Positions 482-57,300 of a stretch of DNA of 64,000 bases are shown here, piece after piece; the first letter of the stretch is position 1, and each line of letters opens with the position of its first letter. Under the pieces are notes generated by a model that was not told the DNA's origin, did no database searches, and saw nothing but the letters and a program-made list of their open reading frames with translations. The DNA is from a virus. Taxonomy: Duplodnaviria > Caudoviricetes. A program made the position numbers and the translations under genes. The DNA lies in the IMG/VR virus record IMGVR_UViG_3300033073_001271, positions 1 to 64,000 of that record; one strand, 5' to 3'.

Positions 482-1517
482 CAGCTTAGGATATGGTGTT
501 GCGGGATATAATATTGCAAAACAATTAGGTAAGAAGAAAGGCTTACACGACTTTGCTCTTTTTCCAATTGGTCAACCTGAACCAGAATTGTATGAAGATT
601 TGGTTCAATATGACTGGCGAAACAAAGAAGTAGAATTTGATTGGTCTGAAACATGTGTAAAAATTTGGCATCAAAATGGCCTTCATGAAACGGTCGGACG
701 AGGAAATAGAATCGGTTTTCCTATTTTTGAACTTAATAGATTTACCAACGAAGAAAAGCTAAGCGTTGGTAGTTGTGATGGTGTCTTTGTATGTTCAAAA
801 TGGGCTAAAGATATTGTCGAAGACCAAACTACGGCACAATATGTTAAAGTTGTGCCTCTTGGGGTTGACCGTTCTATTTTCAATGAAAATAATAATGTAT
901 CCAGACCTCCCACTGTATTTTTTAACTGTGGTAAATGGGAAATCAGGAAAGGTCATGATGCTTTACTAGAGTGCTTTGAAAAGGCTTTTAATCAAAGTGA
1001 TAATGTAGAACTTTGGCTATTGTGTGAAAACCCTTTTATTGAACAAATTAATAAACAATGGATCGATTATTACAAAAATTCCAAGCTGGGAAATAAGATT
1101 CGAATCTTACCAAGGCAAAAAACTCAGCGGGATGTGTATAATATTATGAGACAAGTTGATTGCGGAGTATTTCCAGTTCGAGCAGAGGGTTGGAATTTAG
1201 AGCTATTAGAATTGTTATCATGTGGTAAAAATATTATTACAACAAATTATTCTGGTCATACAGAATTTGCAGATAGTAAAAATTCTTATCTGGTAGAAAT
1301 TAATGAACTCGAACCTGCGCATGATGGAATATGGTTTCATGGTCAAGGCGAATGGGCTAAAATTGGAGATCAGCAAAAAAATAGTTTTGCAGAAAAAATG
1401 AAATATGTTCATAAACTAAAACAAGATGGTGAATTGGGTTTAAATATCGCTGGTATTGAGACTGCAAGGCATTTTTCTTGGGAAAATACAGCAGAGGAGA
1501 TATTAAATGGGCTTTGA
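459..1517 (+). CDS. GT-B glycosyltransferase (GT4-like)
   Basis: GKWEIRKG and FPVRAEGWNLELLELLSCGKNIITTNYSG match the GT4 C-terminal E-x7-E motif. ATG at 459 follows GAGGA (the track starts at 444). Confidence 0.85.
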   Translation: MLLQAPINSLGYGVAGYNIAKQLGKKKGLHDFALFPIGQPEPELYEDLVQYDWRNKEVEFDWSETCVKIWHQNGLHETVGRGNRIGFPIFELNRFTNEEKLSVGSCDGVFVCSKWAKDIVEDQTTAQYVKVVPLGVDRSIFNENNNVSRPPTVFFNCGKWEIRKGHDALLECFEKAFNQSDNVELWLLCENPFIEQINKQWIDYYKNSKLGNKIRILPRQKTQRDVYNIMRQVDCGVFPVRAEGWNLELLELLSCGKNIITTNYSGHTEFADSKNSYLVEINELEPAHDGIWFHGQGEWAKIGDQQKNSFAEKMKYVHKLKQDGELGLNIAGIETARHFSWENTAEEILNGL

Positions 1518-4018: not shown

Positions 4019-4047
4019 TTGACTTTTCTCTATGGGTCTGGTATAAT
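4019..4047 (+). promoter_or_regulatory. Sigma70-consensus promoter
   Basis: TTGACT (4019-4024), 17-nt spacer, TATAAT (4042-4047), in an intergenic gap; AGGAGA RBS precedes ATG 4077. Confidence 0.8.
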
Positions 4048-4060
4048 ACACTAGACCCAT
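4032..4060. repeat. Inverted repeat enclosing the -10 box
   Basis: ATGGGTCTGGT / ACTAGACCCAT: 11 pairs including one G-T, with a 7-nt loop ATAATAC. Confidence 0.85.
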
Positions 4061-4076
4061 TTTCATAGGAGAATAT

Positions 4077-4755: not shown

Positions 4756-5168
4756 TGAAAAAAATCATGTGGGAAAACTGGAATGAAAAAGAAATTGAAT
4801 TAACTGATAATATTGGCGCTTTTGACGATTTTCAAAACGAAGATATTGATGGGGAAGACGGTCTCTCTCAGATGAGAGAAGATCCAGCGTCTATGGGGGC
4901 TTTTTTGACTGAGCTAAAATCACCCATTATATATACTCCATTTGGATCAGTGCCATCTGAATCGGTATTAAAGCCATCGGATAGATGGCAGTGTTGGTTA
5001 GGATATACAAATTTTGATTTAACTCACAAAATTTCGGACAAAATGAAAGTAGTAAATGGCGTAGAAGCGTTAAGAATAATGAGTAGATACACCTTTTGTA
5101 TTGGAGTAGGAAAATTATTCAATTTCAGTAATGTCAGGAAGGAAATAGAAGATGTCATCTGTAAATGA
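4755..5168 (+). CDS. Hypothetical acidic protein
   Basis: 137-aa ORF with TAATG overlap. Confidence 0.7.
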   Translation: MKKIMWENWNEKEIELTDNIGAFDDFQNEDIDGEDGLSQMREDPASMGAFLTELKSPIIYTPFGSVPSESVLKPSDRWQCWLGYTNFDLTHKISDKMKVVNGVEALRIMSRYTFCIGVGKLFNFSNVRKEIEDVICK

Positions 5169-5664
5169 GAAAAAATTTGAAGAAGCTGTTAATAATGATT
5201 ACTACAAAAAGATTATGTATAAAGTCTGCACAGAAAATTTAAAGGGGATTTGCACAAAAGATGAAATGAAATCAATCATGATGAGTACTCTATGGGGATG
5301 CGTTCAAAAGTTTGACACAGATAAAAAAGTAAAGTTCTCATCATATCTTTATAGAAGTATGCAAAATAACTCAAGAAGATTTTATAAAAAGAAGCAAAAG
5401 CAGAATAAAGATACTGAATTTATCGACAACTTCCACAGCGTCTTGAAAATTGACACAAATGCAAGAGATGAAGCTAGAGATATTTTAATGTCAGTACAAG
5501 ATTTAAATCCAGAGCTATACAATATTCTTATTCAAAAATTTTATCACGGTATGACAAATAAAGAAATAGGCGAATCAAACGGATATGGTAAAGAAGCAGC
5601 TAGAAAAAAACTTAAAAAAGCTCTAGAACTGTGTCGCGAAATTGTGTATAGTAATGTAGGATAA
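5152..5664 (+). CDS. Phage-encoded sigma70-family (compact, region 2 + region 4) sigma factor
   Basis: LWGCVQKFDTDKKVKFSSYLYRSM resembles region 2 (FD..K..KFSTY); FYHGMTNKEIGESNGYGKEAARKKLKKAL resembles the region 4 HTH. Confidence 0.8.
   Translation: MSSVNEKKFEEAVNNDYYKKIMYKVCTENLKGICTKDEMKSIMMSTLWGCVQKFDTDKKVKFSSYLYRSMQNNSRRFYKKKQKQNKDTEFIDNFHSVLKIDTNARDEARDILMSVQDLNPELYNILIQKFYHGMTNKEIGESNGYGKEAARKKLKKALELCREIVYSNVG
5644..5660 (+). promoter_or_regulatory. Candidate phage late promoter GTG-TAnnnT-N4-TAGG (copy 1)
   Basis: GTGTATAGTAATGTAGG; the same spacing recurs at 36016-36032 and 62327-62343 on the minus strand. Confidence 0.65.
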
Positions 5665-5735
5665 GGAACGTATGCAGGGACAAATAGGAAAAATATATTA
5701 TGATGATGGTTAATTACTTTTAAAGGAGAACTGCT

Positions 5736-6392
5736 ATGGTTCCAAATCAATCAGTGAATATTTATAAGATCAGCACCGTTGGCGGAGCAGCTTTTACAAG
5801 CCAAAGATATGGTGGTGCAATTCTTGGTCTTGCTACAGCAACAACAAAAATCACAAAAGCGATCTTGCTAAAAGACACTAATGCGATTGACCAAACAATC
5901 TACCCACTACCTAAGTTACTATCTGGCGCTAGAACTTACAACACAGCTAAGATTCTAAGCGGCGGAACATTCGCATTCAACGATGCAAAATATCGCACAT
6001 ACATCATGTCAAGACTTGCAACAAGCCTTGCCGGTGTATCTAACACATTCTTGCAATTCATGGGCAATGTCAATATTGCACCATCTATCGCATACTATGT
6101 CAAAGACCACTATGACAATACCACAAGTTTAATGCGTACAGCTAAGTTCAGCCGCACTGGTTACGGTGTTGCCGGAACAGACGCAACAGCAACCGGATAT
6201 GCTGGTAAAATCAAGGCTAGAACACCTTGGGTTACAGTTCCAACTGGCACTGCTGGTACAGACTTTGGTACATCTGGATCACTACCAACAAGAGCAGTTC
6301 CGGGTCGCCTAGTATTCTTGACAAACTTTGTTAACTATCTACCTGCCACAAGCTCAAACTTCTATAATTACAAACCAATCACAGGCAAGTAA
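5736..6392 (+). CDS. Probable abundant virion/structural protein
   Basis: Own candidate promoter, AAAGGAGA RBS and terminator. Thr/Ala/Gly-rich, with C-ending codons (AAC, ATC, GAC) more frequent than in neighbours. Confidence 0.55.
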   Translation: MVPNQSVNIYKISTVGGAAFTSQRYGGAILGLATATTKITKAILLKDTNAIDQTIYPLPKLLSGARTYNTAKILSGGTFAFNDAKYRTYIMSRLATSLAGVSNTFLQFMGNVNIAPSIAYYVKDHYDNTTSLMRTAKFSRTGYGVAGTDATATGYAGKIKARTPWVTVPTGTAGTDFGTSGSLPTRAVPGRLVFLTNFVNYLPATSSNFYNYKPITGK

Positions 6393-6403: not shown

Positions 6404-6439
6404 AAAAGGGGGTCGAGTTACGGCTCGATCCCTTTTTTT
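6404..6439 (+). terminator. Intrinsic terminator
   Basis: AAAAGGGGGTCGAG-TTACGG-CTCGATCCC followed by a T-run, directly after the 5736-6392 stop. Confidence 0.85.
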
Positions 6440-12775: not shown

Positions 12776-13127
12776 GTCTGCAACACACGAAGAATTACAA
12801 AGTATTGGTATTGAACCGCCGAAACAAACTTTGGTATGGTATCAAGATAAAGCTGGAAAATCTTGTGATGAAAATAAAGCGGTTGCTAAAACTGTAGAAA
12901 TTCCAACAGAAGATGGAAAAGGCGTGATTATGACGTACCATGTAAAACATGGAAGAGGACAGTTATTTGATCCATATGGAATTGATATGAATAAAACAAA
13001 CGCATACGATTTCCAATTTAAAAAAGTAGATAAAGATATTTTTGATAATTACGTAAAATATTTAACTACTCGCAGAGAATATTTTTTGACAACTGCTCGC
13101 AGGGCTTATATTAATAAAGGAAATTAA
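12765..13127 (+). CDS. Hypothetical protein
   Basis: 120-aa ORF with GAAGGA RBS. Confidence 0.65.
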   Translation: MVSKSATHEELQSIGIEPPKQTLVWYQDKAGKSCDENKAVAKTVEIPTEDGKGVIMTYHVKHGRGQLFDPYGIDMNKTNAYDFQFKKVDKDIFDNYVKYLTTRREYFLTTARRAYINKGN

Positions 13128-13128
13128 A

Positions 13129-13377
13129 ATGGCTAAGAAAAAAGTATTGCCATCGGATGTGCCAAAGCAAGAACCATCTGATCACGATAGTAATGAACAA
13201 AATGAAAATACCCACACTTTACCTAATACATATCAAATGTTTGCTAGAAAAAAGGAACGTGGATTTACGGCAATGACAAAAGAAGCGTCAATGAGATCAG
13301 ATGAAACTGCAATTGATAGAAAAGGTCATATGCCAGATAGAATTAAATCTTGTATTCATAAAATTAGGGAAGATTAA
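13129..13377 (+). CDS. Hypothetical protein
   Basis: 82-aa ORF with AAAGGA RBS. Confidence 0.6.
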   Translation: MAKKKVLPSDVPKQEPSDHDSNEQNENTHTLPNTYQMFARKKERGFTAMTKEASMRSDETAIDRKGHMPDRIKSCIHKIRED

Positions 13378-13868
13378 TGATTTGCACTGGATATAATCAA
13401 CACGTATTATCTTTACTAGATAACCAAGAAATTTTATGGAAATGTATATTAGATGATGGAACTCAAGTCTTATCAGATTTTGATGTACCAGATGAAAAAG
13501 ATCCTTGGACTAGATTAAGAATTTATTGTTATAACAATAACAAAAACATAGTAGAAGTAAAAGCTCTATGTCCGGGTATGCCAGAGACATCCATTTATAA
13601 AGATGAAGAAGGTTTAGACAATTTCTTTATCACAAGAGGAGTTACTAAAGACCTTAATGAGGACAACGGTGTTGTGTTCAGATTTATGTGCTTTGGAAAA
13701 TTAAATGAAGAAGGCTCAATTAGTGTTACAAAATTTTATTGGCCTGAATTTGAGTTAAAACAATCTTCAGAAGTTAGATTAATGACTCCAGAAAACAACG
13801 CATTGATGTATAAAAAGCGCAAAACGTGCGGAGATAGCTGTAAATGTCAAAGCAAAGAACAGATCTAA
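13377..13868 (+). CDS. Hypothetical protein
   Basis: 163-aa ORF with TAATG overlap. Confidence 0.7.
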   Translation: MICTGYNQHVLSLLDNQEILWKCILDDGTQVLSDFDVPDEKDPWTRLRIYCYNNNKNIVEVKALCPGMPETSIYKDEEGLDNFFITRGVTKDLNEDNGVVFRFMCFGKLNEEGSISVTKFYWPEFELKQSSEVRLMTPENNALMYKKRKTCGDSCKCQSKEQI

Positions 13869-14287
13869 GCAAGTATAAATCCCCATCCACTGGGGATTTT
13901 TGCACTCCTGCGCAATATGTAGCAGAATTAATATGTCAAAAACAAGCAAAGCATGAAAAACTAGGCACTCTTCCTTATAAATTTTGGAATACACCAAAGT
14001 GGAAAAAGATATATATTAGACAGGTTTCTTTAGCAAATAAACTTATTAAAGAATATGGCGAAGAACCTGTTATTAAATTTGTATCATCAAAAGCAGGATC
14101 AAAAACTATTTCGCTGGGCGCTAGGAATGTAAAATCAGAGATAGAAAAAATTAAAATATCCCTTGACAATGCTCCAAAGCGTGATACAATACAAACGGTA
14201 GAAACTTCGCAAGCAGTATTCACATCGAGAAAAACATTTGGCGTAAAGACATTAATACAAAGACTGAAAGAAGTAGAGAATGACTGA
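13844..14287 (+). CDS. Hypothetical basic protein
   Basis: 147-aa ORF directly upstream of RecA. Confidence 0.7.
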   Translation: MSKQRTDLSKYKSPSTGDFCTPAQYVAELICQKQAKHEKLGTLPYKFWNTPKWKKIYIRQVSLANKLIKEYGEEPVIKFVSSKAGSKTISLGARNVKSEIEKIKISLDNAPKRDTIQTVETSQAVFTSRKTFGVKTLIQRLKEVEND

Positions 14288-15275
14288 TAAAGAATTTATT
14301 AAAAAGTATGGCGAATATGTAACAACTGGAGATAAAATCCTTGAAACGAAGAGGAATTACAAGACAATATCAATTAGCCCTGCTATTGATTTGGCTCTTG
14401 GTGGTGGTATCAAAGAAGGTTCTTGGATGATTCTTTCTGGTCCTCCAAAAGCTGGAAAAACTACAACAACAATGCAAATTATTGCAAACTGCCAAGCTCT
14501 TGGTCGTAAAATTATTTATTTAGATGTTGAAGGTCGTCTAAAAGAAATGAATTTTGAAGTACCGGGAATTGATCCATCTCTAGTGCAAGTCATTAAATCC
14601 GGTGATGAGCCATTGGCAGCAGAGACATTTCTAGATATTGCAAGAAAGCTAATCTCAGATAAAGAAAATGAAGGATGTGTACTTGTTATTGATTCAATTT
14701 CATCACTTATTCCATCTCGTGATTTAGATGAAGATATCAGTGGCATGACTAGACCGGGCCTGCCAAAAATCCTATCTGATTTCGTTAAAAAAACCGGACA
14801 AACGGTTCCTAATCAAAAGTGCTTGGTGATTATGATTACTCATATGATTACAAACACAAGTGGCTATGGTAAGTCAAAAATGGCCGATGGTGGCGTTAAA
14901 ATTCAATTTCAAGCCGATACACGCATGGAAGTCAAGAGCGTATCTCCTTGGGAATCTGCTGGATCTACAAAAGAGCAGAAAAATGTAATTGGATTGAAAG
15001 TAACGTGGGATATTTTATGTTCGTCAATTGGCGCACCATATAAAACATGTGAAAGCTGGATTAGATTTGGTCATGGCATTGATAAAGTACAAGAGATTTT
15101 AATGATTGCTATTGATCTCGGATTAATATCTGTTGCTGGATCTTGGTATAATCTTGACTTTATTGAAAGTGAAAAAATCAAATTACAAGGTCAGGAAAAG
15201 GTATATAACTATCTAACGGAAAATCCAGAATTTTACACTTTACTAGAATCTAAAGTCAAGGAAATGCTATATTGA
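14280..15275 (+). CDS. recA: RecA/UvsX-like recombinase
   Basis: SPAIDLALGGG, GPPKAGKTT (Walker A), YLDVEG, VIDSISSL (Walker B). Confidence 0.9.
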   Translation: MTDKEFIKKYGEYVTTGDKILETKRNYKTISISPAIDLALGGGIKEGSWMILSGPPKAGKTTTTMQIIANCQALGRKIIYLDVEGRLKEMNFEVPGIDPSLVQVIKSGDEPLAAETFLDIARKLISDKENEGCVLVIDSISSLIPSRDLDEDISGMTRPGLPKILSDFVKKTGQTVPNQKCLVIMITHMITNTSGYGKSKMADGGVKIQFQADTRMEVKSVSPWESAGSTKEQKNVIGLKVTWDILCSSIGAPYKTCESWIRFGHGIDKVQEILMIAIDLGLISVAGSWYNLDFIESEKIKLQGQEKVYNYLTENPEFYTLLESKVKEMLY

Positions 15276-15685
15276 AAATACTTGGATTAGATGGGAAAGA
15301 ATATTCTTGGGTTCCAAGCAACAATATTGTAGAAACTGAAAAAAGGTCGGGTCTACACAATAAAGCCCGACAACTTCTTAAAGAAAAATATCCCAACGAT
15401 AGGATATTAGAAGAGCTGGTGCTACCCGGAACAAAAACAGAAACAAGAAAATCCACCCTAAAGGCGGATTTTTTTATTCCAGTCAGATCCTTAATCATAG
15501 AAGTTCATGGGCAACAACATACTGAGTATAATAATTTCTTTTTTGCAAATAAAATGGAATTCTACAAAGCTCAGGCAAGGGACAGAGATAAAAAACGATG
15601 GTGCGAAATCAATCAATTTGAAATTATAGAACTCTTTCATAATGAAAGTATCGAAGAGTGGAGAGATAAAATATGGAAGAGATAG
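15272..15685 (+). CDS. Vsr/DUF559-like endonuclease
   Basis: ADFFIP...IIEVHGQQH motif. Confidence 0.7.
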   Translation: MKILGLDGKEYSWVPSNNIVETEKRSGLHNKARQLLKEKYPNDRILEELVLPGTKTETRKSTLKADFFIPVRSLIIEVHGQQHTEYNNFFFANKMEFYKAQARDRDKKRWCEINQFEIIELFHNESIEEWRDKIWKR

Positions 15686-16158
15686 ATGAAAGAATAAATA
15701 AATTTCACAAAGGTATTGACGATTGGATTGAGAGCAAGAATATAGACTATGGCATCGACTCTTTTGGTGACAAAGTATATGAGGTGAGTAAAATTTTACA
15801 TTTAAGCAGAGACGAGCTAAAAGCTATGTCCGCTGTAGACTGTCAAACTGCAATATTTTTACTTAACCAATATTGGTCTTACTTAAACACGTTGCTAGCA
15901 AGAGAAAAAGCTGTTAAAACATGGGCTGATCAGGGCATATGGTATATCATTACAGGTATGCAACATGATAAATATTCTAAGTGGGAAGAAAAATATCACA
16001 TGTCAATTCGAGCAAGCCCAATAGGTATAAAATTACAAATTTTGAAAACAACGGCAGAAGCTAGAATTTTAGCAACAGAAGCTACTGCTGGAAGGCTAGA
16101 AACTGCTATCAAAGTACTAGAAAACTTATCAAGGAGTAAAACTTATGACAAGTCTTAA
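15673..16158 (+). CDS. Helical protein, possibly UvsY-like recombination mediator
   Basis: Size, helical/coiled-coil character and position near RecA; no diagnostic motif. Confidence 0.35.
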   Translation: MEEIDERINKFHKGIDDWIESKNIDYGIDSFGDKVYEVSKILHLSRDELKAMSAVDCQTAIFLLNQYWSYLNTLLAREKAVKTWADQGIWYIITGMQHDKYSKWEEKYHMSIRASPIGIKLQILKTTAEARILATEATAGRLETAIKVLENLSRSKTYDKS

Positions 16159-17070: not shown

Positions 17071-17180
17071 TATATCTAAAAGTTGGGTTTATACTATTTA
17101 TAGCATTCTATTGTATATCTGTATATAGAATCATTAACGGAGCTATTATTGGAGATATTAATGATAGAGATTGTATTTAG
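17067..17180 (+). CDS. Small (37 aa) hydrophobic protein not in the ORF track
   Basis: TTG overlaps the dut TGA; reads (M)IYLKVGFILFIAFYCISVYRIINGAIIGDINDRDCI and fills an otherwise empty gap. Confidence 0.5.
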   Translation: MIYLKVGFILFIAFYCISVYRIINGAIIGDINDRDCI

Positions 17181-21280: not shown

Positions 21281-22308
21281 TCACTACATATTTTAGAAGT
21301 TCCAGTTTAAATAACTGGAAATATTGCGAGCTGCAATATTTTATGACGTATGTTCTTGGTCACTACTCGCCTTCAGGTAAAAAAGCAGACTTAGGAACTA
21401 TTACTCATGCGGTGTTTGAAACACTAGCTATTTGCAAAAAGAGAACTCAGTTTAATAAAAGAAATACAATGAAAGTCACTCAAGAACCCTTGGGTGATTT
21501 TTCTTTCACAGATAGTGAATTATATACTGATGATTTTGTGAATTACATATTGGGTCGTAGTTTTGATTATTATCAAAAAAATTGCACCCATAATAATTTT
21601 ACGCAAAAAGATTATGAATTTTGTTATAAAATGGTATGGGATACGCTTGCTTATAACAAAGGACAGTTTGATCCGCGCAACCGTAAAATTATAGACACAG
21701 AACCTCATTTTGATATACCAATTAATGAAAGCTGGGCAAAATTTGATTATACGTTGCCATCAGGTGAAAAATTATCTGGAAATCTGGCAATAAAAGGCAC
21801 AATCGACCTTGTAACTGAGCTAGAGGATGGTACAATTGAGGTAATCGACTGGAAAACGGGCCAAAGGCTAGACTGGGCAACGGGCGAAAAGAAAGATTAT
21901 GATAAGCTCATGAAAGATACTCAACTATTGCTATATCATTATGCAATTAGTAAAATGTATCCTAAACATAGACATTCTATCATGACTATTTTCTTTTGTA
22001 GAGACGGTGGACCATTCTCATTAGCTTTTGACAAAGAAGATGATGCTAATTTTATAAAGTATCTAGAAAAAATGTTTAAAGAGATTGTATCTAATCAAAC
22101 TCCAAAACCAGTTTCTAGAGAAAGAAGTAGTTTTAAGTGTCAAAAACTTTGTCATTATTATAAAACTAATTGGCCCGGAACAGACACTACAATGTGTCAC
22201 TATGTTGAAGATCAACTAAAAACTATAGGAATGCACGAAACGGTTAAGAATTGTTCTAAACCGGGGTTCACAATTGGAAAATATAAAGATCCGGGGGCGG
22301 TTGAATGA
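21277..22308 (+). CDS. PD-(D/E)XK exonuclease (RecB/Cas4-like)
   Basis: RSSSLNNWKYC, GTITHAVFE, KGTIDL, VIDWKTG and C-terminal C..LC.Y...C. Confidence 0.8.
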   Translation: MITTYFRSSSLNNWKYCELQYFMTYVLGHYSPSGKKADLGTITHAVFETLAICKKRTQFNKRNTMKVTQEPLGDFSFTDSELYTDDFVNYILGRSFDYYQKNCTHNNFTQKDYEFCYKMVWDTLAYNKGQFDPRNRKIIDTEPHFDIPINESWAKFDYTLPSGEKLSGNLAIKGTIDLVTELEDGTIEVIDWKTGQRLDWATGEKKDYDKLMKDTQLLLYHYAISKMYPKHRHSIMTIFFCRDGGPFSLAFDKEDDANFIKYLEKMFKEIVSNQTPKPVSRERSSFKCQKLCHYYKTNWPGTDTTMCHYVEDQLKTIGMHETVKNCSKPGFTIGKYKDPGAVE

Positions 22309-23915
22309 GGATACCAGCTATTACTACTCACTATTCATTATTAAAAGGGTTTATCAAACCCGATGAAGCAGCTAAGAAATGTAAAGAGCTTGGCTACACA
22401 CATTGTCTACTAGCTGACGATAATTTAAGTGGTGTTGTAGACTTTTTTAGCTGTATGAAAAAAGAGGGTATAGTTCCCATCATTGGCTGGAAAGCTGATG
22501 GTGGTTACTATATCGCAAAAACTTTATTAGGATATAAACTTCTAATCAAACTTGTGTCAGGAGAAAATATAGTTTATACTGATAAAGACCTCCAGTTCTA
22601 TAACGAAGGTGAGCTTTATTTAATGGAGGTTTGTTATGCTGAAGAAAAAGACGCTATTCTTCACAGAATTGTACTTTGCTCAGGTTTAAAAACGACTCTT
22701 AAAAAATCAAAAGAAGCTAACCTTGGTGAATTCAAGAAATATTTTGACTCAAGCGGTTACTATTTTAAATCAAAAGATACCTTAATAACTAGAGATTACT
22801 CTAATAATAATAAGCTAATTTTATCTTTGGAAGATTATACAATTTTTTCTAAGCCAAAATTACCAAAGGTTGATTGCGGAGGAATCCCAGAAGATGAATA
22901 TTTAACCGAACTATGTCGCCAAGGTTGGCGTAAAAAATTGATGCACCTAAAAGGGGAGCAAAAGCAACAATATGCAGATCGTATAAAATATGAGCTATCT
23001 ATTATTAATGGATTTGGACTGTCTGGTTACTTTTTAATTGTGCAAGACATTATTGATTTTGTACGAAGAAATGGATGGTTGCCGGGTCCGGGACGGGGTA
23101 GTGCAGGTGGATGCTTAGTTTCATATTTATTGGGAATTATTGATATTGATCCATTGAAATATGATTTACTATTTTCAAGATTTTTAAATGCTGGTAGATT
23201 TAGCAAAGACAATATATCATTACCAGATATTGATATGGACGTACCTTCTATTTATCGCGATGAAATTATTGAATATATCAAAAATAAATATGGCAAAGAT
23301 CGTGTATATCAAATGATTACTCTTGGTCGTCTTCAAGGTAGATCAGCAGTAAAAGAAGTTGCAAGAGTTTATGGCAATATTTCTTATACAGAACTAAATG
23401 AACTAACTAAGAGTTTACCCCAAGAAGCGTCTATTTCAGACGAGTTAGAGGAAATGGATGTGAAGTCGGTGATTCTATGGACATTAGAAGATGACAGAAG
23501 AAAAGAATCTGAAATGATCGCATCTAGAGAAAAACTAAAACAACTTTTGATAGCTGAGGGGGGATTGAGCGATAGCGAGATAGATACAGCATTAACGAAT
23601 AAAATTCCAGACAAGAGAAAGCTGCATAAATGGTGTAAGATAGATCAAGATGGCAATCTTTCTGGGGAGTTGTCAGATTTGTTTGATTTGGCTATAAGAA
23701 TAGAAGGAACTTATAAAAGTCAAGGAAAGCACCCAGCCGGTGTGATTATATCAAATGAGGATTTAATCAATGACGCTCCATTAATTAAAGATAAAAATGG
23801 AGATAATATTGTAGGATTTGAAATGTCTGATCTTGATAAAGTCGGACTGACTAAGTTTGACGTTCTTGGTATTAACTTATTAGATAAGATTATGGAAATT
23901 ACAAATGACGAATGA
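22305..23915 (+). CDS. dnaE: DNA polymerase III alpha, N-terminal part (degenerate PHP + palm/thumb)
   Basis: GPGRGSAGGCLVSYLLGI, LLFSRFLN, LPDIDMD, GKHPAGV, KFDVLG; ends about 14 aa later. Confidence 0.9.
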   Translation: MRIPAITTHYSLLKGFIKPDEAAKKCKELGYTHCLLADDNLSGVVDFFSCMKKEGIVPIIGWKADGGYYIAKTLLGYKLLIKLVSGENIVYTDKDLQFYNEGELYLMEVCYAEEKDAILHRIVLCSGLKTTLKKSKEANLGEFKKYFDSSGYYFKSKDTLITRDYSNNNKLILSLEDYTIFSKPKLPKVDCGGIPEDEYLTELCRQGWRKKLMHLKGEQKQQYADRIKYELSIINGFGLSGYFLIVQDIIDFVRRNGWLPGPGRGSAGGCLVSYLLGIIDIDPLKYDLLFSRFLNAGRFSKDNISLPDIDMDVPSIYRDEIIEYIKNKYGKDRVYQMITLGRLQGRSAVKEVARVYGNISYTELNELTKSLPQEASISDELEEMDVKSVILWTLEDDRRKESEMIASREKLKQLLIAEGGLSDSEIDTALTNKIPDKRKLHKWCKIDQDGNLSGELSDLFDLAIRIEGTYKSQGKHPAGVIISNEDLINDAPLIKDKNGDNIVGFEMSDLDKVGLTKFDVLGINLLDKIMEITNDE

Positions 23916-24132
23916 AAAGTTTTTGGATTATGCTACAGTAATTAGAGATGGTAATGATATTGACTATAAAGATTTGAGTTTATCAGATCTAAGGAATCAT
24001 GTACCTTGGTACAGAGGAAGGAAAGCTGGAATTTATCAGGTACACAATAATAAATTTTCTCAAATATATCACGATTTGAACGAAGCAATCACAAAGTTTA
24101 TTGAATTGAGAGGAACATATGGCTCTAAATAA
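23905..24132 (+). CDS. Hypothetical protein between the dnaE halves
   Basis: 75-aa ORF overlapping both neighbours. Confidence 0.6.
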   Translation: MTNEKFLDYATVIRDGNDIDYKDLSLSDLRNHVPWYRGRKAGIYQVHNNKFSQIYHDLNEAITKFIELRGTYGSK

Positions 24133-24826
24133 TGGTCGGGATTATATTGTATTTGACTTTGAAACTGGTGGCAGAAATCCAAACAAATGTCAATTGACGC
24201 AAATTTCAGCTATTGTGCTTCATGGTAAAAAGTTGACTCTCCAGCCCGGTGGAGTCTTCGACATCGAAGTAAGGCCCGAATTTGACGACGAGAAGGCTAT
24301 TGCAGCAGGCTTTGATCCAGTTGAACAGGGCGCTTTGGATGTTACCAGAAAAACACGGGAACAGCTTGAAAAAGCGGTTGGACCAAAAGTTGCATGGCAA
24401 CAATTTAGCGCATTTGTTAATAAATTTAATATGAAGGGATCTCCGTACTTTGCTCCTATTCCAGTTGGATTCAATATCAACAACTTTGATATGCCAATCA
24501 TCAATCGATATTGTAATCTATATGGCCCAAAGGATGAGAAGAATGACAAACAAAAGCTAGTTCATCAAATTTATAAAGTAGATATGATGGATGTTTTATT
24601 TGGGTGGTTTGAGGATAATGACGCAGTACAAAAGTTGAATATGGATTATTTACGTGGGTTTTTTGGGTTCTCAGAAGAGAGCAAAGCTAATGCACACAAC
24701 GCTCTATCAGATGTTGTTGACACTGCAAATATTTTTATTCGCTTTATGAAATATCATCGTAAACTAAATAGCAAAACCACATTTGAAAAATCTTTTGCCA
24801 ATTCTCCTATGGATATTGTACTATAA
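24119..24826 (+). CDS. DEDDh 3'-5' exonuclease (DnaQ/epsilon-like)
   Basis: VFDFETGG (ExoI), GFNINNFD (ExoII), HNALSDV (ExoIII). Confidence 0.88.
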   Translation: MALNNGRDYIVFDFETGGRNPNKCQLTQISAIVLHGKKLTLQPGGVFDIEVRPEFDDEKAIAAGFDPVEQGALDVTRKTREQLEKAVGPKVAWQQFSAFVNKFNMKGSPYFAPIPVGFNINNFDMPIINRYCNLYGPKDEKNDKQKLVHQIYKVDMMDVLFGWFEDNDAVQKLNMDYLRGFFGFSEESKANAHNALSDVVDTANIFIRFMKYHRKLNSKTTFEKSFANSPMDIVL

Positions 24827-24842
24827 AAATAAAGGACATTTA

Positions 24843-26444
24843 ATGGTTGCCATTAAAGATATCAAAAATTTTGATGATGAAGCGACTTGGAATTTGATTT
24901 GCAGCGGTAAGACAAAGGGTATTTTTCAATTAGAGTCGGGTCTTGGTTCTGTTTGGGCCAAAAGATCACAACCTCGTAGTATTGAAGAGTTGGCCGACCT
25001 TGTATCTATTATTCGTCCGGGAACGCTAGAGGCTGAACTGGACGGCAAATCAATGACCAAGCACTACACAGACCGAAAAGCTAAAATTGATGAGACTAAA
25101 TATCTTGATCCGGCGCTAGAACCGATTCTTAATAAAACTTATGGTATTATTGTATACCAAGAGCAAGCTATGCGTATCGCTACTGATATTGCGGGGTTTA
25201 CACCAGAAGAGGCTGACTCATTGCGTAAAGCTATGGGTAAAAAGGATGCGGCTCTTATGCAGGAAATTAGAACTAAGTTTATTAATGGCTGCAAATCTAA
25301 AAACATTGTTACCGATCAGTCAGCAGCGCAAATCTTTGATTGGATTCAAGCGTCAGCGCGATATTCATTCAATAAAAGCCATGCTGTTGCTTATGCTATT
25401 AACGCATTTGGATCTGCTTATTGTAAAGCCCACGATCCACTAAAATTCTTTGAAGTTTATCTGAACAATGCTTGTCACAAGCCAGAAAAACAGATTGAAA
25501 TTAAAGAATTGATTATGGATGCCAAATATCATGGCATAGAAGTCCTGCCACCAAGGTTGGACTTTTTTTATCGTAGATTTACAATGAACAGGGATAAGAA
25601 TGTAATCTATTTTGGTTATAGTAATGTTAAACATGTTGGAGAGGGTGAGCAAGAAACATTAGCTAAAGTTGTCAGTGACGCTGAAAAGATTTGCAAAAAA
25701 CCTATTAATCAATTTAATTGGCTTGATTGTTTATTTTTGATAGGCAATGAGATTAAAAAGAATGCATTCATATCAATTATTAGCGTTGGAGGTTTAACCG
25801 GAAAAAACAACCAAATATCAAGAAATAGAATGATATTTGAGTTTGAGAATTGGAATAGATTATCTCCAAAAGAACAAGAGTGGATGTTAAATTATTGGCG
25901 ACATACTACAAATATGGCTAATGATTCTTTTGTAAATTTAGTTAATTTAATGATTAATAACAATCCAAAAATTACATCGTCTAGAATGAAATCTGTGATT
26001 GATATTTATCAAACATTACAAAATCCTCCATATTCATTGGAAGATGATCACTCTTGGATAGCTGATATTGAACAGAAACTGATGGGATGCGCTTTAACAT
26101 GCTCTAAAACTGACATCGTTAATACAAATTTACCATATGAAGTAAATGTAACATGTTCAGAAATTTCAAAGGGTGAAATTAAAGGAATGCAAGACGCTTG
26201 TATTGCAGTTACACTAAATGAAGTTAAGGAATATACAATTACAAGAGGCAAGTCTATAGGAAAAACTATGGCTTTTATTAAAGCAGAAGATGGTACAGGA
26301 GAACTTGATTCTATCACTTTATTTTCCGAAGAATTTGAGAAAAATAAGAAGTTGCTTTTTGAAGGAAATACGGTATTATTATTAGGAGAGATACAAGAGA
26401 GAAAAGACAAATCGCTTGTAGTTAAGGAAGTTTTTCAAATTTAG
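24843..26444 (+). CDS. dnaE: DNA polymerase III alpha, C-terminal part (fingers + OB fold)
   Basis: ATG 24843 after AAAGGA; GIFQLES, IRPG, TYGIIVYQEQ, LRKAMGKK, YSFNKSHAVAYA, MAFIKAEDGTG. Confidence 0.9.
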   Translation: MVAIKDIKNFDDEATWNLICSGKTKGIFQLESGLGSVWAKRSQPRSIEELADLVSIIRPGTLEAELDGKSMTKHYTDRKAKIDETKYLDPALEPILNKTYGIIVYQEQAMRIATDIAGFTPEEADSLRKAMGKKDAALMQEIRTKFINGCKSKNIVTDQSAAQIFDWIQASARYSFNKSHAVAYAINAFGSAYCKAHDPLKFFEVYLNNACHKPEKQIEIKELIMDAKYHGIEVLPPRLDFFYRRFTMNRDKNVIYFGYSNVKHVGEGEQETLAKVVSDAEKICKKPINQFNWLDCLFLIGNEIKKNAFISIISVGGLTGKNNQISRNRMIFEFENWNRLSPKEQEWMLNYWRHTTNMANDSFVNLVNLMINNNPKITSSRMKSVIDIYQTLQNPPYSLEDDHSWIADIEQKLMGCALTCSKTDIVNTNLPYEVNVTCSEISKGEIKGMQDACIAVTLNEVKEYTITRGKSIGKTMAFIKAEDGTGELDSITLFSEEFEKNKKLLFEGNTVLLLGEIQERKDKSLVVKEVFQI

Positions 26445-34825: not shown

Positions 34826-34854
34826 AAAAAGCCCGGAGCGATCCGGGCTTTTTT
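34826..34854. terminator. Bidirectional intrinsic terminator at the convergence point
   Basis: AAAAAGCCCGGA-GCGA-TCCGGGCTTTTTT: perfect stem, GNRA loop, A/T runs on both sides. Confidence 0.92.
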
Positions 34855-34874
34855 ATTTATCGCTATAGTTTACC

Positions 34875-34924
34875 GCTGTTCGTCTTCAACTATAGTTTGA
34901 GAATGAGTCGCGACTCGAAACAGC
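34875..34924. other. Compact structured intergenic element (predicted three-way junction)
   Basis: GCTGTT/AACAGC closes two hairpins: TCTTCAA/TTGAGA and GAGT-CGCG-ACTC. Confidence 0.5.
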
Positions 34925-34950
34925 AAAAAGGTCGCCAGCTAATCTCTCGA

Positions 34951-35982
34951 TTATAGATATTCAAGGCTTACATATAAGCCATATTGCTTCTTACTTCCGA
35001 TACTTAGCGGCCTTGCAGATAGTGCAACTCTCCAAGTGTGGCGAGTATCATATCCACTTCCTGTGCCAAATGAACCGTATGATCCACTTAAATTAGCAAG
35101 TGTACCGCTACTAATTCCAGCGCCACCGCCATTATATCTAGATTGTTCGCTATTATGAATATATTGAATATATTTAGGTTTCAGAACTCCAGATGAGATT
35201 GCGCCAGCAAATAAACGACCATCGCTACCGGGAGAATCCATAAGAGGTACAATCAAACCAGAGCCACCCACAGTCTCATATCCCGGAGGACTTAAACTAG
35301 CAACCGCAGAATCTGGATTGCCAGAAGTTTTTAGATATTGATAATCTGAAAAATTAGAAAATCTAATACCTACAGAGTTTGTATATCCCGGACGAATCGA
35401 TGTTTGCGGTGTATTTCCACCACCAGCAGAGCCTTCGTAACTCGCGCCACTAGGCCACGGTGAACCCCACCAAAATGCATCACCATAAGTGTATTGGCAA
35501 TTTGCAGAATCCACTCCCATTCCCGGATTCGCCTTCCAATTAGTAACATATCCAGTGCCTGTAGGTAATGTTGAACCAAAATTTACAATCTCAGCAACTT
35601 TAGTAATAACTCCTACTGCCGGAGTATCTGGATCTGTTCTATCATATATTCTCAGTTGTGCGTTTTGAACTTTGACCGCAGTTGGGTGGTCAAAGTGAAT
35701 AAACAACGTAGCGTCTGAACCATTTAAAGCTGTAAGCATACCAGTTGCCGCAGCTTCTCTACCATAGCACGACGATGGCGTAATATATTTTACATTTCTA
35801 ACGCTGCCATATCGTGCAGTACCATCAGCATTTGTAATGTATGTTGTATCTTGATAACTAGTTGTTGAAACACTAGCACCAAATGTGCTACCGTAAAATC
35901 CAAGCCCAGATCCAGTTATTGTATTAACTGGAAAAGAACCACCTATCGTCCCATCTAAAACCTCAAAAGAAATTGATGCCAT
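34951..35982 (-). CDS. Probable virion structural protein
   Basis: Gly/Ser/Thr-rich 343 aa; AGGAGG RBS; preceded by the candidate late promoter. Confidence 0.6.
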   Translation of the reverse strand: MASISFEVLDGTIGGSFPVNTITGSGLGFYGSTFGASVSTTSYQDTTYITNADGTARYGSVRNVKYITPSSCYGREAAATGMLTALNGSDATLFIHFDHPTAVKVQNAQLRIYDRTDPDTPAVGVITKVAEIVNFGSTLPTGTGYVTNWKANPGMGVDSANCQYTYGDAFWWGSPWPSGASYEGSAGGGNTPQTSIRPGYTNSVGIRFSNFSDYQYLKTSGNPDSAVASLSPPGYETVGGSGLIVPLMDSPGSDGRLFAGAISSGVLKPKYIQYIHNSEQSRYNGGGAGISSGTLANLSGSYGSFGTGSGYDTRHTWRVALSARPLSIGSKKQYGLYVSLEYL

Positions 35983-36015: not shown

Positions 36016-36032
36016 CCTAATATATAATACAC
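36016..36032 (-). promoter_or_regulatory. Candidate phage late promoter (copy 2)
   Basis: Minus strand reads GTGTATTATATATTAGG, immediately after the upstream stop codon. Confidence 0.65.
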
Positions 36033-36033
36033 A

Positions 36034-50054: not shown

Positions 50055-53000
50055 TTAATTCCCACGAACATAAAGTGTTGTTAAGTTAGTATTTTCCACT
50101 GGATATAGTTCACCAGAACTAAATAGTGATATTCCTGAATTGTGTAAATTTGCACTTTTGATTGTCATATCTAAATTACTTAGTACTGTAGTATTATACA
50201 CAAATAATGGCAATTGCGCTTCTGGAGTTTTAAACAATACTAAGTTCATTCCACCTTGCTGCGTAGGACCATTTTCAAATTGTGGACCTTGTAAGAATAA
50301 ATTATTGTAATTATAGTTTCCGCTAGAATTTAAAGTTGATCCACTTGGATTTGATAAGAATAGATTAATATTATTATTATATGAAGATGGCGGTGGATCA
50401 GTCGCCATTACCATATTCATTCTACCCGCGAAATCATCATATTCATATGTTTGAATATATAGTAAAGTACTGCCAGAAGAGTTTGGAACTCCTGTGTAAT
50501 AATTTTCAATATATAAAGTTACTGGTCTTACATATGGTTTTATATAATTACCAATCTGACCAGATGGTATTTCTATAACATTTCCAGCCTGATCTACCAA
50601 GGCTATGTCATTTGTTGCAACCACAAGTGGCATAGAACCATATACTTGCTGTGGCATTACAAGTGTAAGGCTATTGGTTGTAGTAAGCTGTTGAATTACA
50701 ATTGGTAATCCGCTTTTATATACATCAGGCTGTTTAATAAATAGATTGATTCCACTATTATGAGTTTCTATTTGTTTGCAGAATAAATTAATACCTGAGT
50801 TATGCACTGCCTCAGCTTCGGTATATAAATACAATCCTGTATTTACAGGAACACCGCCAAGCGCATATATAGGAATTGAATTATTTGCTCCGTCATTTGA
50901 TTTTATAAATAATGGAAGATATGTAGGATTAGGATAAGATTGATTGATAATTTTAATCGCTTTTAAATCTTCTGACCCTTCAAAAACTTCTAGAGATTCT
51001 ATAAGCTCAGCCGTTGGATTAGCCTCTATAAAAGATGCTTGAGAAGGTCTCATTCTCAAAACCGCTAGTTGAGTTAATAAATTATTATCAGTAATTAAAT
51101 GGTGATTTCTACATATAAAAATACCACTAGCAGCATCAAAAGTATAATAAGCGTATTCATTATAATCTCTTAATATAAGAGAATTGCTAAAAATATCATA
51201 TTTGCCACCAAGATTAGATTTTAAGGTTGCTGAATTTCCAGTTGTATTATCATAAGATAGATTATTGGTTAATGTATAGTATGAAGCGTTAATATCAGCA
51301 TATATTGCATTATCTAGATCAATAGTTGGTGAAATTCTTTGTAATAATGTGTATGGACCATCTAAAATATCTTTTTTATAGATATATAAATAATTTAAAG
51401 GGTCAGTTGTTTGATTAGAATCATCAGTTATAGAATATGCATCAGTTATTAAAAATCCATTATCTGCAACAAAGTAATTTCCAAAATTTTTATTTATATT
51501 TGGACTATCAATTTTTTGATTAAGATTATATCCAGATCCAATTCTGTCATAGATATATATAGATCCTCCGTTTGTATTCTTTGACATCCATCCTATAAAT
51601 AATTTTTTATTATCAAAGTCTGTATTTTCAGCATAAAATCCTAATTCATTAATTTGAACTTGCGTATCGCTTGAAACCATATTACTTGGAACGATAATTC
51701 CGCTTAAAGAAGATACTTCATTAGTGTTTAAATCTATATTGAAAGCAAGTGATAAAGCGTCAACATTTTTTACCCTATTATTCATTATAAAATCTGCACT
51801 TTTTACATATGTAGAACCAACGCAGTATAAGTTACCACTTTCTATATTAAAAGCTGCTGATACACCAAACGAATCTAAAAATCCATATTCACGGGGATAT
51901 TTATCCTGTAAAGGCATATCTATTCCCAGAGTATTATTTAAACCATATTCTTTATTCCAAGCGTAATATCTTGCGCCAAGCCAGTAATTATTCACATTTG
52001 AATTATATAAATTATTAGATAATACATTTCTAGTGCCGCTATTGTCTACAGTTAAATCATAATTATTTGTTATGAAATTATAACCTTCTCTTTTTGAACT
52101 TAAATTTGCAGCTTCGTAAGCAGCCCAAGGGTTTCCAGTTTGCGATACAGATGTTATATAGCTAATATCATAAGGAGATTTAGTTATATTATAGAAATGA
52201 ATTCTTCCATATGGTAAATAATGAGGTATGACAAATTTATTTGCTGGTATATAATCTTCACTATAAAATTTATTATATAATTCGAAAGAAAGTTCTGTTC
52301 CCGGCTCTGTAATCATTAAAATATAATTATTGTCAGAAACTTGACTAATTTGACAATCAGCACCAAATCTGTTTCCACCATACTCTTCGTAAATTACAGG
52401 ACTTGAATTATTCGATTCGCTTACTCTTTTGAATGGAAAAAAGTTATTCCACGATGTCCAACTATTTAGATAGGCTTGAGGTCTTGTTAATCCATCTTCT
52501 GTTTTATCTGATTCTATAGCTCTAGTATAAATACTACCTTCTACGCCACTCACTTCTACGGCAGTTCTAACTTTTGGAGAAAACCCATATCCATTTTTGC
52601 CAAGTGGAGAGTATAAAGTATGATTATATTTCCAACCATTAGATGTCCAGTTTACACCGCTAATAGTTTTTAGATTTTCTATATTTGCCGCAGTTTGGAA
52701 TTTAGCATCGTAATAAATATTAAAAGTGTCTGTAGTAACACCGCTGACATATTTTATGCCATTTAAACTAGTTACTCCAGTTGCACTAATAGCGGAAGAG
52801 AATTTAATGACTTCGCCATTATATAGACCGTGACCAGCAGAGGTAATAGTATTGTTGTTATATCCTGTAATTCCACCAGTTTTTTTAGTGTATATATCTA
52901 CTTTTCCGCAGCTTGGAAAATTGGCTACCTTAACGATCTTAATATTTGATTGTAAAGAAATAGTATTATTTGTAACTAAGAAAGTTCCATTTTCTGAATT

Positions 53001-54340: not shown

Positions 54341-57300
54341 TTATCCCCCTCTTGTTTGATCCGATGCTTTCACTGCTTTTTGAACGTCTGGATGTTTAGA
54401 AACTTGATCTCTAATCCATCCTTCAATTGTTGATTTCATTGCATTGACAATGCCTTCTCCACTAACTCCCCCAACATTAACTTGGCCACCAAAAGTCACA
54501 TTGTGAGTTACAGTTACTGAACTTAATTGCCCAGCTAATGCACTCATTGTTGCTGTAAATCCATTAAACGACCCAACGAAGGCGTTTAAAGATTCGATAG
54601 ATTTAGCAAAACTAGTCATATCTGGCATCTGTGGAGCTTGTCCATTATTACCACCTTCTGCGTATGGATCTACACTTCCGCCTTCTTGATAACGGCGAAT
54701 TTTACCGCCTGAAGAGTGATGTCCCACTCTGCCGCCGCGAGCTAAATGAACAGCGCCGCCAGATGAAAAACTAGCAGATCTCCAACCCGGTTTAGCCTGT
54801 TGCATGATTTTTTCTACGGCTGTTAAAGGAGCGTTACTTTGTTGGTATTTTCTATTAGTATATCTACTAGCGTCATTCGCAGAAGGTTTTCTAGAAAATA
54901 AACTATCTTCTTCGGCTTTCTTTTTAGCAGCTAATTGCTCTCTAGTTGGATATTTTGCCAATAGTTGTTGGGCATTTTTTTCTGGAGCAGTCCAAGTTCT
55001 ACTAGATGGATTCCAAGTATAACCTTTTCCGGGAGATTTTAGCATAGAGTCAGCTTTTGCATTTGCGGCTCTCATACTATCATACTTTTTATTACTTGCT
55101 GCTGTAGCTGCTCTTGCAGCAATATTACCCTCTGCTATTTTTTTTCTATATTCATCTGGATCTGTAATATTTGCAGCATCCGCTTTATATTTTGCTCTTA
55201 TTTTTTCAGCATCAGTTGTTATTGCAATAGTTTGTCCCATATCGGCCATCTCACTTAGAGCGCCCGGAGTGCCTCTCATTGCAGATTGGCGAGTTCTTGC
55301 ATTTCTAGCTTGTGCAAAATTTTGAGGACTATTAATAGCATCTCTATTAAGAGGATTGCCACCTAAATCCATGCGGGTATTTTCAATTCTAGCAAAATCG
55401 CTCATTGGATTTGCAGCACGTCTTTGCGCCGCTCTAGCTCTAGCCCCAGCGCGTCCACCGCGAGCGTGATATTCAACTAATCCACCAGTAGCCATTCCAG
55501 TCATGCGACCTAATATTTTGGCAGCTTCTTCTTTGGATAGATCACTAATTTGACGATTTGATGTACTAGCTAATTTTTTAGCCTGTTCTTCTTTCTTTTT
55601 TCTGTTATTAGCAATTTCACTTGAGGTGGCTTTTCTTTCTTCAGTAGCAAAAATAGTACCAAAAAATCCCTTTTTGGCTATAGAATCAGAAAAATCTGGA
55701 CCTTTTTCCTTTTGTCTGTATTTTTCTGGTAAATTACGTTCTTGTAAATCATATTTATCTAATACATTTTGTCTATGAATATCTTTGGCAGTGCCAGAAC
55801 GGAATTGTAAAGATGGTCCTGCATCATACCCAAAACGATTAGCTATAGTGCCACCAATACTACCAGTCATCATATTGCGATCATAAATATTACGATTAAA
55901 CCATTTGCCAAGGCTCGCAGACCAACTATCATTAAAATCTGGAGCGTTTGCACCTTCTGGACCTGCTTCAATTTCTTTTACGGCTGCTGCGGCAGAAGCT
56001 CTTTTTAAATTTGCATCAATGTCAATTTGTCTTTGATTTTCTTTATTTACAACTGGTTTTTGACTTTTTGCAATATCAACTCCAATATTAAGCAATCCAT
56101 TAGCAATACCTCCAGTCGGCTGTTGAGGCATTTGTCCAAGGCCATAACCACCGCCCGGAAGAGTATAATACGGCCCAGATCTTGCCGGGATTGGCGCTGA
56201 AAATTCTGCTATATCGGCAGCTTTTTGAGCTTTTCTTCTATCCGCATTAGCAATAGCTTTTTGTCTTTTAGCATTAGCGGATCTACCATAGTTTATGGCT
56301 CTACCGCCTCTTCTTAAATAGCTAACCAATCCACCAGTTGCATATCCATTATTAATAGCGTCTAAGGTATCTGTACCGATGCTATCGACGGCACTTTTCC
56401 TAATAACATATTCACCCGGAGTTAACATAGCTGGAACAGTATCAGTGCCTTGAGGTGTGAAACCACCATCGGCTCTGTATATAATACCACCCTTTGCCCT
56501 TTTAGCGGCAGGCGGAGCGCCCGGATTTACTGGCACAGCAGCGCCCGTTTTCTTAAATGCTTCAGGATCTTTGATGAAGGATAAATAGTTATTTAATTTA
56601 GAAATATATTCGCCAAATAGTTCTATATTCTTATTAACAGCTTCTAAAGAAGTTTTTGTCGATGAGATGATATCATCTATTTCTTTGGTTGTTAGTTTAG
56701 AACTAGTAACTCCAGCAGCTTTTTGCATAGCTTTGGATTTATCTTGGCCTCTTTGTACATTACCTCTTAACTGATCATTGAAACCTTTAATTTTATCTGT
56801 TACTTGATTTAGAGCTTTAATTTGCCCCTCGCCATACATAATTTCAAGATCTTTTAATTCTTTTTGAGCGGCAATTTCTTCTTGATAAATATTTTGCAGT
56901 TCTGCAATTAATTTTTGTTCAGGTGTGGATGTTTCTGCCATGACCATATTTGCCATGTCCATATTACCACGTTTAGCAAAAAAGTTTGCAGTTAATTGCT
57001 TTTTAATATTTTTACCAGCATCACCAAGCTCACTTAATAATGAATCGACTTGACCTCGCATGTCACTAGATATAGCATCAAGATCGCCTCCAGCCGCCAT
57101 AACCTCTTGCAATGCTATAGCAGCATCATCTTTTGATTTGCGCTGTTCATCACTTCCAAAGGCATATCCAGTTGCAGCGCCGGTATATGCTTCTCTTTGG
57201 GCTTTAAACTTTTCTAATTCAGCAAGCGTGTCGCCCGTTCTTTCGCTTTGATTGGCCAGTGTTTTTAAAGATTGCTCCAGTCTATTTGCTGTGTTTTGTA

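Follow-up and report, generated by a model that had tools for sequence, protein, structure and literature searches.

What is the short element that overlaps the last codons of a phage sigma-like gene (sigma1), and which factor would read it? The original prediction took it for a candidate promoter of the phage sigma factor. The window analysed here, a stretch of 64,000 nucleotides, comprises the initial 64 kb of an IMG/VR viral contig of 73.8 kb (G000), which is estimated to be ~49% complete and has a GC content of ~34%. The plus strand of G000 (1-34823) carries nucleotide and replication genes, including those for ribonucleotide reductase, a UvsX-like recombinase, a DnaB-like helicase, a primase, a split DnaE-like polymerase and glycosyltransferases. 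The virion module, including the tape measure protein (TMP) of 2633 aa, occupies the minus strand from 34951 onwards to the end of the contig. The non-coding share of the contig is ~1.4%. The DnaE-like DNA polymerase is encoded at 22305-26444 by two genes with other ORFs in between, and its tblastn matches were annotated as DnaE-like polymerase III alpha. Between the convergent modules, ~95 nt of non-coding DNA (34855-34950) are near-identical in G000 and its relative G001 and hold the repeated word CTATAGTTT. The proteins flanking this stretch are merely 57-65% identical between the two genomes, and no Rfam or tRNA match was found within it.

Megablast and tblastn searches against 50,697 phage records gave no match for the region, for sigma1 or for the tail tube protein. 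Since no isolated phage matched, there is no annotated relative, and the relatives compared here all come from IMG/VR. G001 (155 kb, 100% complete) is syntenic with G000 and shares 35-95% protein identity with it, G004 (145 kb, 94% complete, GC 39.6%) shares 25-65%, and G002 and G003 are fragments. The capsid-like protein of G001 has a 100% identical match in a 'Bacteriovoracaceae' MAG and 77-78% identical ones in two 'Flavobacteriales' MAGs. The host lookup via this protein thus returned MAG bins only, with labels in conflict, and these matches are probably binned phage contigs.

Three copies of GTGTA-N8-TAGG with equal spacing had been noticed in the original prediction. They are exact matches in the whole window, located at 5644-5660 (+), 36016-36032 (-) and 62327-62343 (-), where 0.21 are expected (the prediction had put this at 0.4), and none of 100 dinucleotide shuffles contained at least three. 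Each of them is preceded by a T, giving TGTGTA. The pattern TGTGTA-N8-TAG occurs exactly four times in the 73.8-kb contig, always at a gene boundary and always co-oriented with the genes. These four copies and two ambiguous ones within coding sequences (CDS) are as follows.

5643-5660, plus strand: copy 1, TGTGTATAGTAATGTAGG; overlaps, as predicted, the last codons of the sigma1 ORF (5152-5664), 76 nt upstream of a 218-aa gene
36016-36033, minus strand: copy 2, TGTGTATTATATATTAGG; 34 nt upstream of a 343-aa gene
62327-62344, minus strand: copy 3, TGTGTAATATAATATAGG; between a 285-aa gene and the tape measure gene
65737-65754 of the contig, outside the window, minus strand: copy 4, TGTGTATTAAAATTTAGC; TAGC in place of TAGG
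50185-50202, minus strand: ambiguous CDS copy, TGTGTATAATAC; 135 nt upstream of a 747-aa gene
1133-1150, plus strand: ambiguous CDS copy, TGTGTATAATATTATGAG; identical in four genomes

Copy 2 begins directly after the stop codon of a 74-aa gene, and the 343-aa gene behind it is the last one of the minus-strand module. Copy 3 begins 2 nt past the stop codon of the 285-aa gene and 85 nt upstream of the tape measure gene, while copy 4 lies 44 nt upstream of the 356-aa tail tube gene. The minus-strand module has three gaps of at least 25 nt, each starting with the motif, and in most copies the motif starts 0-3 nt from the upstream stop codon. The two CDS copies were left ambiguous because they are conserved but encode a V-Y-N tripeptide. 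The copy at 50185-50202 is kept in G001 and G002, yet its V-Y-N tripeptide is itself conserved, and the one at 1133-1150 encodes the conserved peptide DVYNIMRQ in preferred codons. A match with one mismatch at 17112-17128 was dropped, since G001 lacks it and a sigmaA-type promoter (TTGATA-N17-TATACT) accounts for the gap. In G002, a TGTGTATTAAAATT copy at 6178-6191 (-) is oriented antisense, into the 3'-terminal part of the 218-aa homologue, and is either a chance match or an antisense promoter.

The motif was found at orthologous sites in G001, G002, G003 and G004, down to 25-65% protein identity. These sites are the sigma1 end or the region upstream of the 218-aa homologue, and the regions upstream of the tube gene, the TMP gene and the 343-aa homologue. 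Seventeen distinct relatives have AATTGTGTAT unchanged where the sigma1 gene ends. The same DNA is translated there in two frames, giving a sigma1 C-terminus of either ELCIV-stop or EIVYxx, and the wobble positions around it are variable. G004 has an additional 212-aa gene behind sigma1, and its motif (TGTGTACTATATAATAGG) has remained with the 218-aa homologue. The reading of AATTGTGTAT in two frames, the variable wobble positions and the G004 insertion therefore indicate selection on the DNA, with the element belonging to the downstream gene. At copy 2, TGTGTAT is kept in G001 and G004 and TAGG is lost in G001; copy 3 is kept in G001, G002 and G004.

In a hexamer test of G001, TGTGTA was the word most enriched upstream of late-block genes (5 observed, 0.27 expected, p 9e-6), and outside the late blocks the top words were CTTGAC, TTGACA and TATAAT-type. 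In G004, TTGTGTAT is present in seven of nine late-block upstream regions, and among the late-region hexamers GTGTAT (p 1e-9) and TGTGTA rank just after TTTTTT. The late-block sites of G004 precede the sigma2 operon (described below), the portal gene, the gene after the capsid-like gene, the tube gene, the TMP gene and the 343-aa homologue. G001 has more copies before the portal gene, HNH-like genes and other inserted genes, and at 111038 the motif stands back to back with a divergent sigmaA-type promoter. The early regions of G001 and G004 carry TTGACA-N17-TATAAT promoters. As for the check attached to the original prediction, the motif is not equally frequent within CDS or on the wrong strand: non-coding TGTGTAT in five genomes is sense in 21 cases and antisense in 3 (4 ambiguous), versus 46 sense and 40 antisense within CDS. 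A position weight matrix built without the G000 training sites ranked the four G000 sites first, its training set including their orthologues in the relatives. Judged from sequence, the element is a strand-specific conserved signal located where late or structural transcription units begin.

The early promoters of G004 (e.g. 12953-16156) share the spacer word GCCGATA between TTGACA and TATAAT, which points to a recurring cassette of early promoters or to a spacer-borne operator. They were not accepted as evidence for a phage factor, GCCGATA being a spacer within ordinary TTGACA-N17-TATAAT.

A sequence logo of 30 sites displayed a weak wAw, TGTGTA, T at position 7 (27/30), A at position 8 (22/30), any base, and T at position 10 (21/30). 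Further 3', it displayed an AT-rich stretch, T at position 15 (24/30) and purine-rich positions 16-18. The consensus can be written as wAw-TGTGTAT-A-n-T, with a T and two to three purines 4-5 nt later, and many copies read TAATGTGTAT. TGTG abuts the hexamer TATAnT (motif positions 5-10) in all 30 sites, and the T with its purines lies 5-8 nt past this hexamer. The predicted -10-like hexamer is thus present, and so is the predicted lack of a shared -35 box: upstream of the motif each logo column holds less than 0.2 bit (30 sites), and in a -35/-10 consensus scan none of the four G000 sites passed, with no sigma70-type -35 at the proper distance. In contrast, the promoter at 4019-4047 and the early promoters of G001 and G004 do have a TTGACA-type -35. 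The core proposed originally, GTGTA...TAGG, has to be redrawn as TGTGTAT with TATAnT, TAGG being a weaker, shiftable part of the element that is replaced or shifted in orthologous copies. Its counterparts are TGAG, TAAG, TGGG or AAGG in other sigma-end copies, TGAT in copy 2 of G001 and TACA or TAAC in G004, and in copy 3 of G001 TAGG has moved by 1 nt (N9 spacing).

The motif sites were also compared with the established promoter types. Canonical sigma70/sigmaA promoters have TTGACA 16-18 bp upstream of the hexamer, which was not found at the motif sites. Extended -10 promoters have TG at -15/-14, one base before the hexamer, but here TGTG abuts TATAnT. For ECF promoters (AAC-type -35, CGT/GTC-type -10, 16-17 bp apart), no AAC-type element was found upstream, and a conserved GGAAC was found downstream of copy 1 only. 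The motif has no dyad symmetry and no conserved fold, and no Rfam family matches it. A general 5' hairpin was dropped as a candidate; the small palindromes after copies 2 and 4 fold no better than shuffles.

Two sigma-like genes are found in this phage group, and the first of them is preceded by a host-type promoter.

5152-5664, plus strand: sigma1, a 170-aa ECF-like protein of the sigma70 family with region 2 and a region-4-like end
4019-4047, plus strand: host-type promoter, TTGACT-N17-TATAAT with TG, 11 of 12 consensus matches
131030-131539 of G001: sigma2, only region 2 detectable; first gene of the late block

Sigma1 matches PF04542 with 27.3 bits (above the cut-off), PF04545 with 23.2 bits (just below the cut-off) and, over its full length, TIGR02937 with 56.8 bits; phrog_1740 and a SigW profile match as well. 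It also has weak matches to Q antiterminators (PF06530, E 4e-4, below the cut-off; phrog_79, E 9e-7), and one sigma1 homologue has PF06530 as a precomputed domain. Sigma1 is the last gene of a four-gene operon behind the promoter at 4019, an arrangement in line with the circuit proposed in the original prediction. The original prediction of a host sigma70 promoter at this place is supported: the promoter is near-consensus and is kept in G001 as TTGACA-N17-TATAAT. At 4019-4068, an inverted repeat, GGGTCT...AGACCC, has the -10 box in its loop and a T-run behind it, and in the G001 counterpart both arms have changed together (GGGCTT...AAGCCC). This repeat may be a promoter-overlapping terminator or a structure-dependent switch.

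The late block of G001 that is headed by sigma2 holds the terminase, portal and head genes. The sigma2 family is present in 138 viral contigs versus 27 for that of sigma1, and G004 and G007 encode both proteins. The G000 contig ends before the position where sigma2 would lie. Of 58 distinct sigma2 loci, 27 have TGTGTA no more than 300 nt ahead of the gene. The sigma cascade cannot be ordered, as the motif is found before the sigma1 as well as the sigma2 operon in G004. No relationship between sigma1 and sigma2 was detected by hhalign, and BLASTP gave no similarity of either to phiEco32 gp36 (E 22 and 38). A search for a T7-type RNA polymerase (PF00940) gave no match, a weak result because the control genomes gave none either.

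The original prediction had made the motif cognate to the phage sigma. A sigma70-family gene and a late-unit signal are indeed both present. The assignment to sigma1 did not stand in that form: the link between the motif and sigma1 (5152-5664) is no more than plausible, given that a further sigma-like gene of wider distribution heads the late block in near-complete relatives. With a single phage-specific motif class and two sigma-like genes, the reader may be sigma1, sigma2 or both; if a phage factor is assumed, sigma1 is slightly favoured over sigma2 or both together.

The genes and signals downstream of the copies are listed below.

5736-6392, plus strand: 218-aa gene downstream of copy 1, with a conserved AGGA-rich leader; 18 homologues
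6404-6439, plus strand: intrinsic terminator at the end of the unit formed by copy 1 and the 218-aa gene
34951-35982, minus strand: 343-aa gene downstream of copy 2, followed by a bidirectional terminator at 34826-34853
54341-62242, minus strand: tape measure gene, 2633 aa, downstream of copy 3 and a hairpin
62259-62313, minus strand: terminator-like hairpin with U8, between copy 3 and the TMP start codon
64623-65693 of the contig, minus strand: tail tube gene, 356 aa, downstream of copy 4

Copy 1, the 218-aa gene and the strong terminator form a one-gene unit, and the G001 counterpart of this terminator is a hairpin of different sequence with a T-run. Copy 2 forms a further unit together with the 343-aa gene and the bidirectional terminator. 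Behind the capsid-like gene of G001 and G004 come first a terminator and then the motif. The copies had been described as lying upstream of structural-looking genes; their place at gene boundaries is confirmed, but a structural product is shown only for the TMP gene and for the 356-aa tail tube gene of copy 4, and not for the 218-aa and 343-aa genes. No family or fold was found for the 218-aa protein in Pfam, PHROGs or the ESM Atlas, and its AlphaFold model (pLDDT 32) was unusable. Its leader (5657-5735) contains four conserved AGGA-type repeats (TAGGA, AAGGAAC, AGGACAA and TAGGAAAA), which are conserved in 17 relatives, both where the sigma ORF overruns them and where it does not. This leader could be a binding platform for a translational regulator.

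The model of the 356-aa protein (pLDDT 72.5) has the fold of a duplicated tail tube protein, resembling T5 pb6 and the P74-26 tube, with Foldseek matches to tail tube proteins at E 6e-12 to 4e-8. Its family counts over 3600 protein clusters, part of which stem from Tara Oceans data. G004 has a 27%-identical tube paralogue at 109562-110584, outside the late block. A palindrome, ATAGATCTAT, closely precedes the ribosome-binding site of the tail tube gene (contig 65700-65722, minus strand) and is kept in G000, G001 and G002.

The hairpin in the TMP leader begins 14 nt after copy 3. It folds with -22 to -26 kcal/mol (z -2.7 to -4.1) in G000, G001 and G002, and is conserved in the latter two with a G-U change. 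G004 has an unrelated GC-rich hairpin with T7 at this position. Reading copy 3 as a plain promoter for TMP leaves the hairpin before TMP unexplained. The order of promoter and hairpin suggests attenuation of TMP, a short RNA, or terminator-resistant transcription.

The sequence of the element, its conservation, placement and strand bias, the absent -35 box and the sigma-like genes are direct observations, from which we infer that TGTGTAT is very probably a promoter of some kind. It probably represents a class of late promoters without a -35 box, a reading for which the comparison of genomes gives good support, and a phage sigma-like factor is rather likely to be its reader. TGTG would then be an upstream extension abutting the -10-like hexamer TATAnT, and the T with purines at positions 15-18 (TAGG) would mark the initiation region, with a predicted start ~6-7 nt past the hexamer. 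The host holoenzyme would transcribe the early genes, including the sigma1 operon, from canonical TTGACA-N17-TGnTATAAT promoters. At a later stage, core RNA polymerase with a phage-encoded sigma-like subunit would initiate at the TGTGTAT sites, which would boost or restart transcription before the 218-aa gene, the tail tube gene, the TMP region and the last gene of the virion module, and in the relatives also before the portal and head genes.

Several observations speak against this reading. Near-complete relatives have two sigma-like genes and one evident phage-specific motif class, copy 3 lies upstream of a conserved terminator-like hairpin and not after it, TATAnT is also read by host sigmaA, and a few antisense and CDS copies exist. 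Moreover, a region-4-like domain such as that of sigma1 would normally be expected to recognise a -35 box, but no such box is conserved. In the cryo-EM structure of phiEco32 gp36, however, AATGTA is located at about -11.5 and the C-terminal domain is still on the -35 region (PMC12276001), and the region-4-like domain is therefore no argument against sigma1.

It is possible, though unlikely, that the host primary sigma reads the motif as a -35-independent, extended -10-like site. Late preference would then come from phage factors that block -35-dependent transcription or act as activators, and the sigma-like proteins would serve other promoters or act as co-factors. Positions 5-10 (TATAnT) correspond to the sigmaA -10 consensus, and TGTG resembles the TRTG '-16' element in the early promoters of this phage group. 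A precedent is Thermus phage P23-45, in which the host holoenzyme uses extended -10 sites as middle and late promoters. However, the early promoters space TG one base from the hexamer (TGTGgTATAAT, TGGTATAAT), and the TGTG of the late motif is one base out of that register, which argues against plain use by the host sigma. In addition, only 21/30 sites have T10, which corresponds to the near-invariant T-7, and the two sigma-like genes are conserved across the whole clade.

A phage protein might also act in a less conventional way at these sites: a sigma/Q-like protein could stay with the polymerase for terminator read-through, or the two sigma-like proteins could form a split sigma. We consider this improbable. 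Read-through would explain the conserved terminator behind the TMP copy in relatives at 25-65% identity. In the split-sigma version, one protein may provide -10 recognition and the other flap binding, by analogy with T4 gp55 and gp33.

That the motif is an operator, or an RNA-level signal for processing, stability or translation control at gene junctions, seems very improbable. Such a role would suit the start of most copies 0-3 nt from the upstream stop codon and the AGGA repeats in the leader after copy 1, but the motif is AT-rich and -10-like, without dyad symmetry, conserved fold or Rfam match. Furthermore, the G001 copy at 111038 diverges from a sigmaA promoter, and some copies follow terminators, beyond the reach of the upstream transcript.

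Still less probable is a loading site for terminator-resistant polymerase of the lambda pR'-qut-tR' kind, at which a sigma/Q-like protein would modify transcription for read-through and, without the factor, an RNA of ~65 nt would be made. The order of motif, hairpin with U-run and TMP is kept in four genomes, even with the unrelated hairpin sequence of G004, and the matches of sigma1 to PF06530 and phrog_79 point in the same direction. Against it, copy 3 alone has a clear terminator behind the motif, the sigma matches are far stronger than the Q matches, and the Q similarity is limited to the region-4-like C-terminal half of sigma1. Finally, chance recurrence of an AT-rich word, which could appeal to the definition of the pattern after the fact and to an excess of just ~2-fold over the reversed control for the exact 9-base pattern in G001, is extremely improbable and already refuted by the comparative data, i.e. 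conservation at orthologous sites, strand bias, hexamer enrichment in independent genomes and conservation in two frames.

As a late promoter consensus, wAw-TGTGTAT-A-n-T is testable for a large clade of uncultured T5-tube-like siphophages (~145-155 kb) that has no cultured or annotated member, and it allows early and late transcription units to be split from sequence. A simple motif together with two small, divergent sigma-like proteins makes this a compact system for minimal sigmas on promoters without a -35 box. A full-text literature search for the motif and phage late promoters found no description of it. The consensus sequence is new; the kind of phage regulation is already known, and no new principle of regulation is involved.

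The original prediction named the late promoters of T4 (TATAAATA; gp55, gp33 and the gp45 clamp) as the analogue. These are likewise compact, with a -10 element only and a phage sigma-like reader, but their sequence differs from TGTGTAT, and gp55 has a region-2-like part only whereas sigma1 has regions 2 and 4. Extended -10 promoters (TGnTATAAT/TRTGnTATAAT) share the TG extension and a TATAAT-like hexamer and need no -35 box, but in the present motif TGTG abuts the hexamer, and the phages' own early promoters are in the canonical register. The lambda pR'-qut-tR' region with Q has a promoter-proximal terminator before the late genes, as at copy 3, and sigma1 is weakly Q-like; unlike lambda, only one copy has this arrangement, the Q similarity is below threshold, and pR' has a normal -35 box. 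Bacillus phage SPO1 has a sigma cascade, gp28 followed by gp33/gp34, with middle and late promoters that are bipartite (-35 and -10) and fall into two distinct classes. The present group would resemble it in using host-sigma early promoters first and phage sigma(s) later, and in having two phage sigma-type genes, but it has a single phage-specific class without a -35 box.

Phage sigmas for middle and late genes have been described (PMC13401047). The closest known case, by analogy, is that of the single-element promoters of phiEco32 gp36, which is closer than T4 gp55. Six middle and late promoters of that phage share the single element tAATGTAtA without a -35 consensus, and their starts lie 6-8 bp downstream (PMC8948821), a geometry with which a T and purines 5-8 nt past the hexamer would be compatible. 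The present motif differs in the extra GT in its core and in the two sigma-like genes of this phage group. At the sequence level, the likeness consists of one ~9-bp element around -10 without a -35 consensus, the word being (T)AATGTGTAT here versus tAATGTAtA in phiEco32. The present motif shares with the single-element class a conserved stretch of ~8-10 bp at the putative -10 position, the lack of a conserved -35 box and a sigma-family protein encoded by the phage; as in that class, it lies upstream of and co-oriented with middle or late genes and is absent from early promoters.
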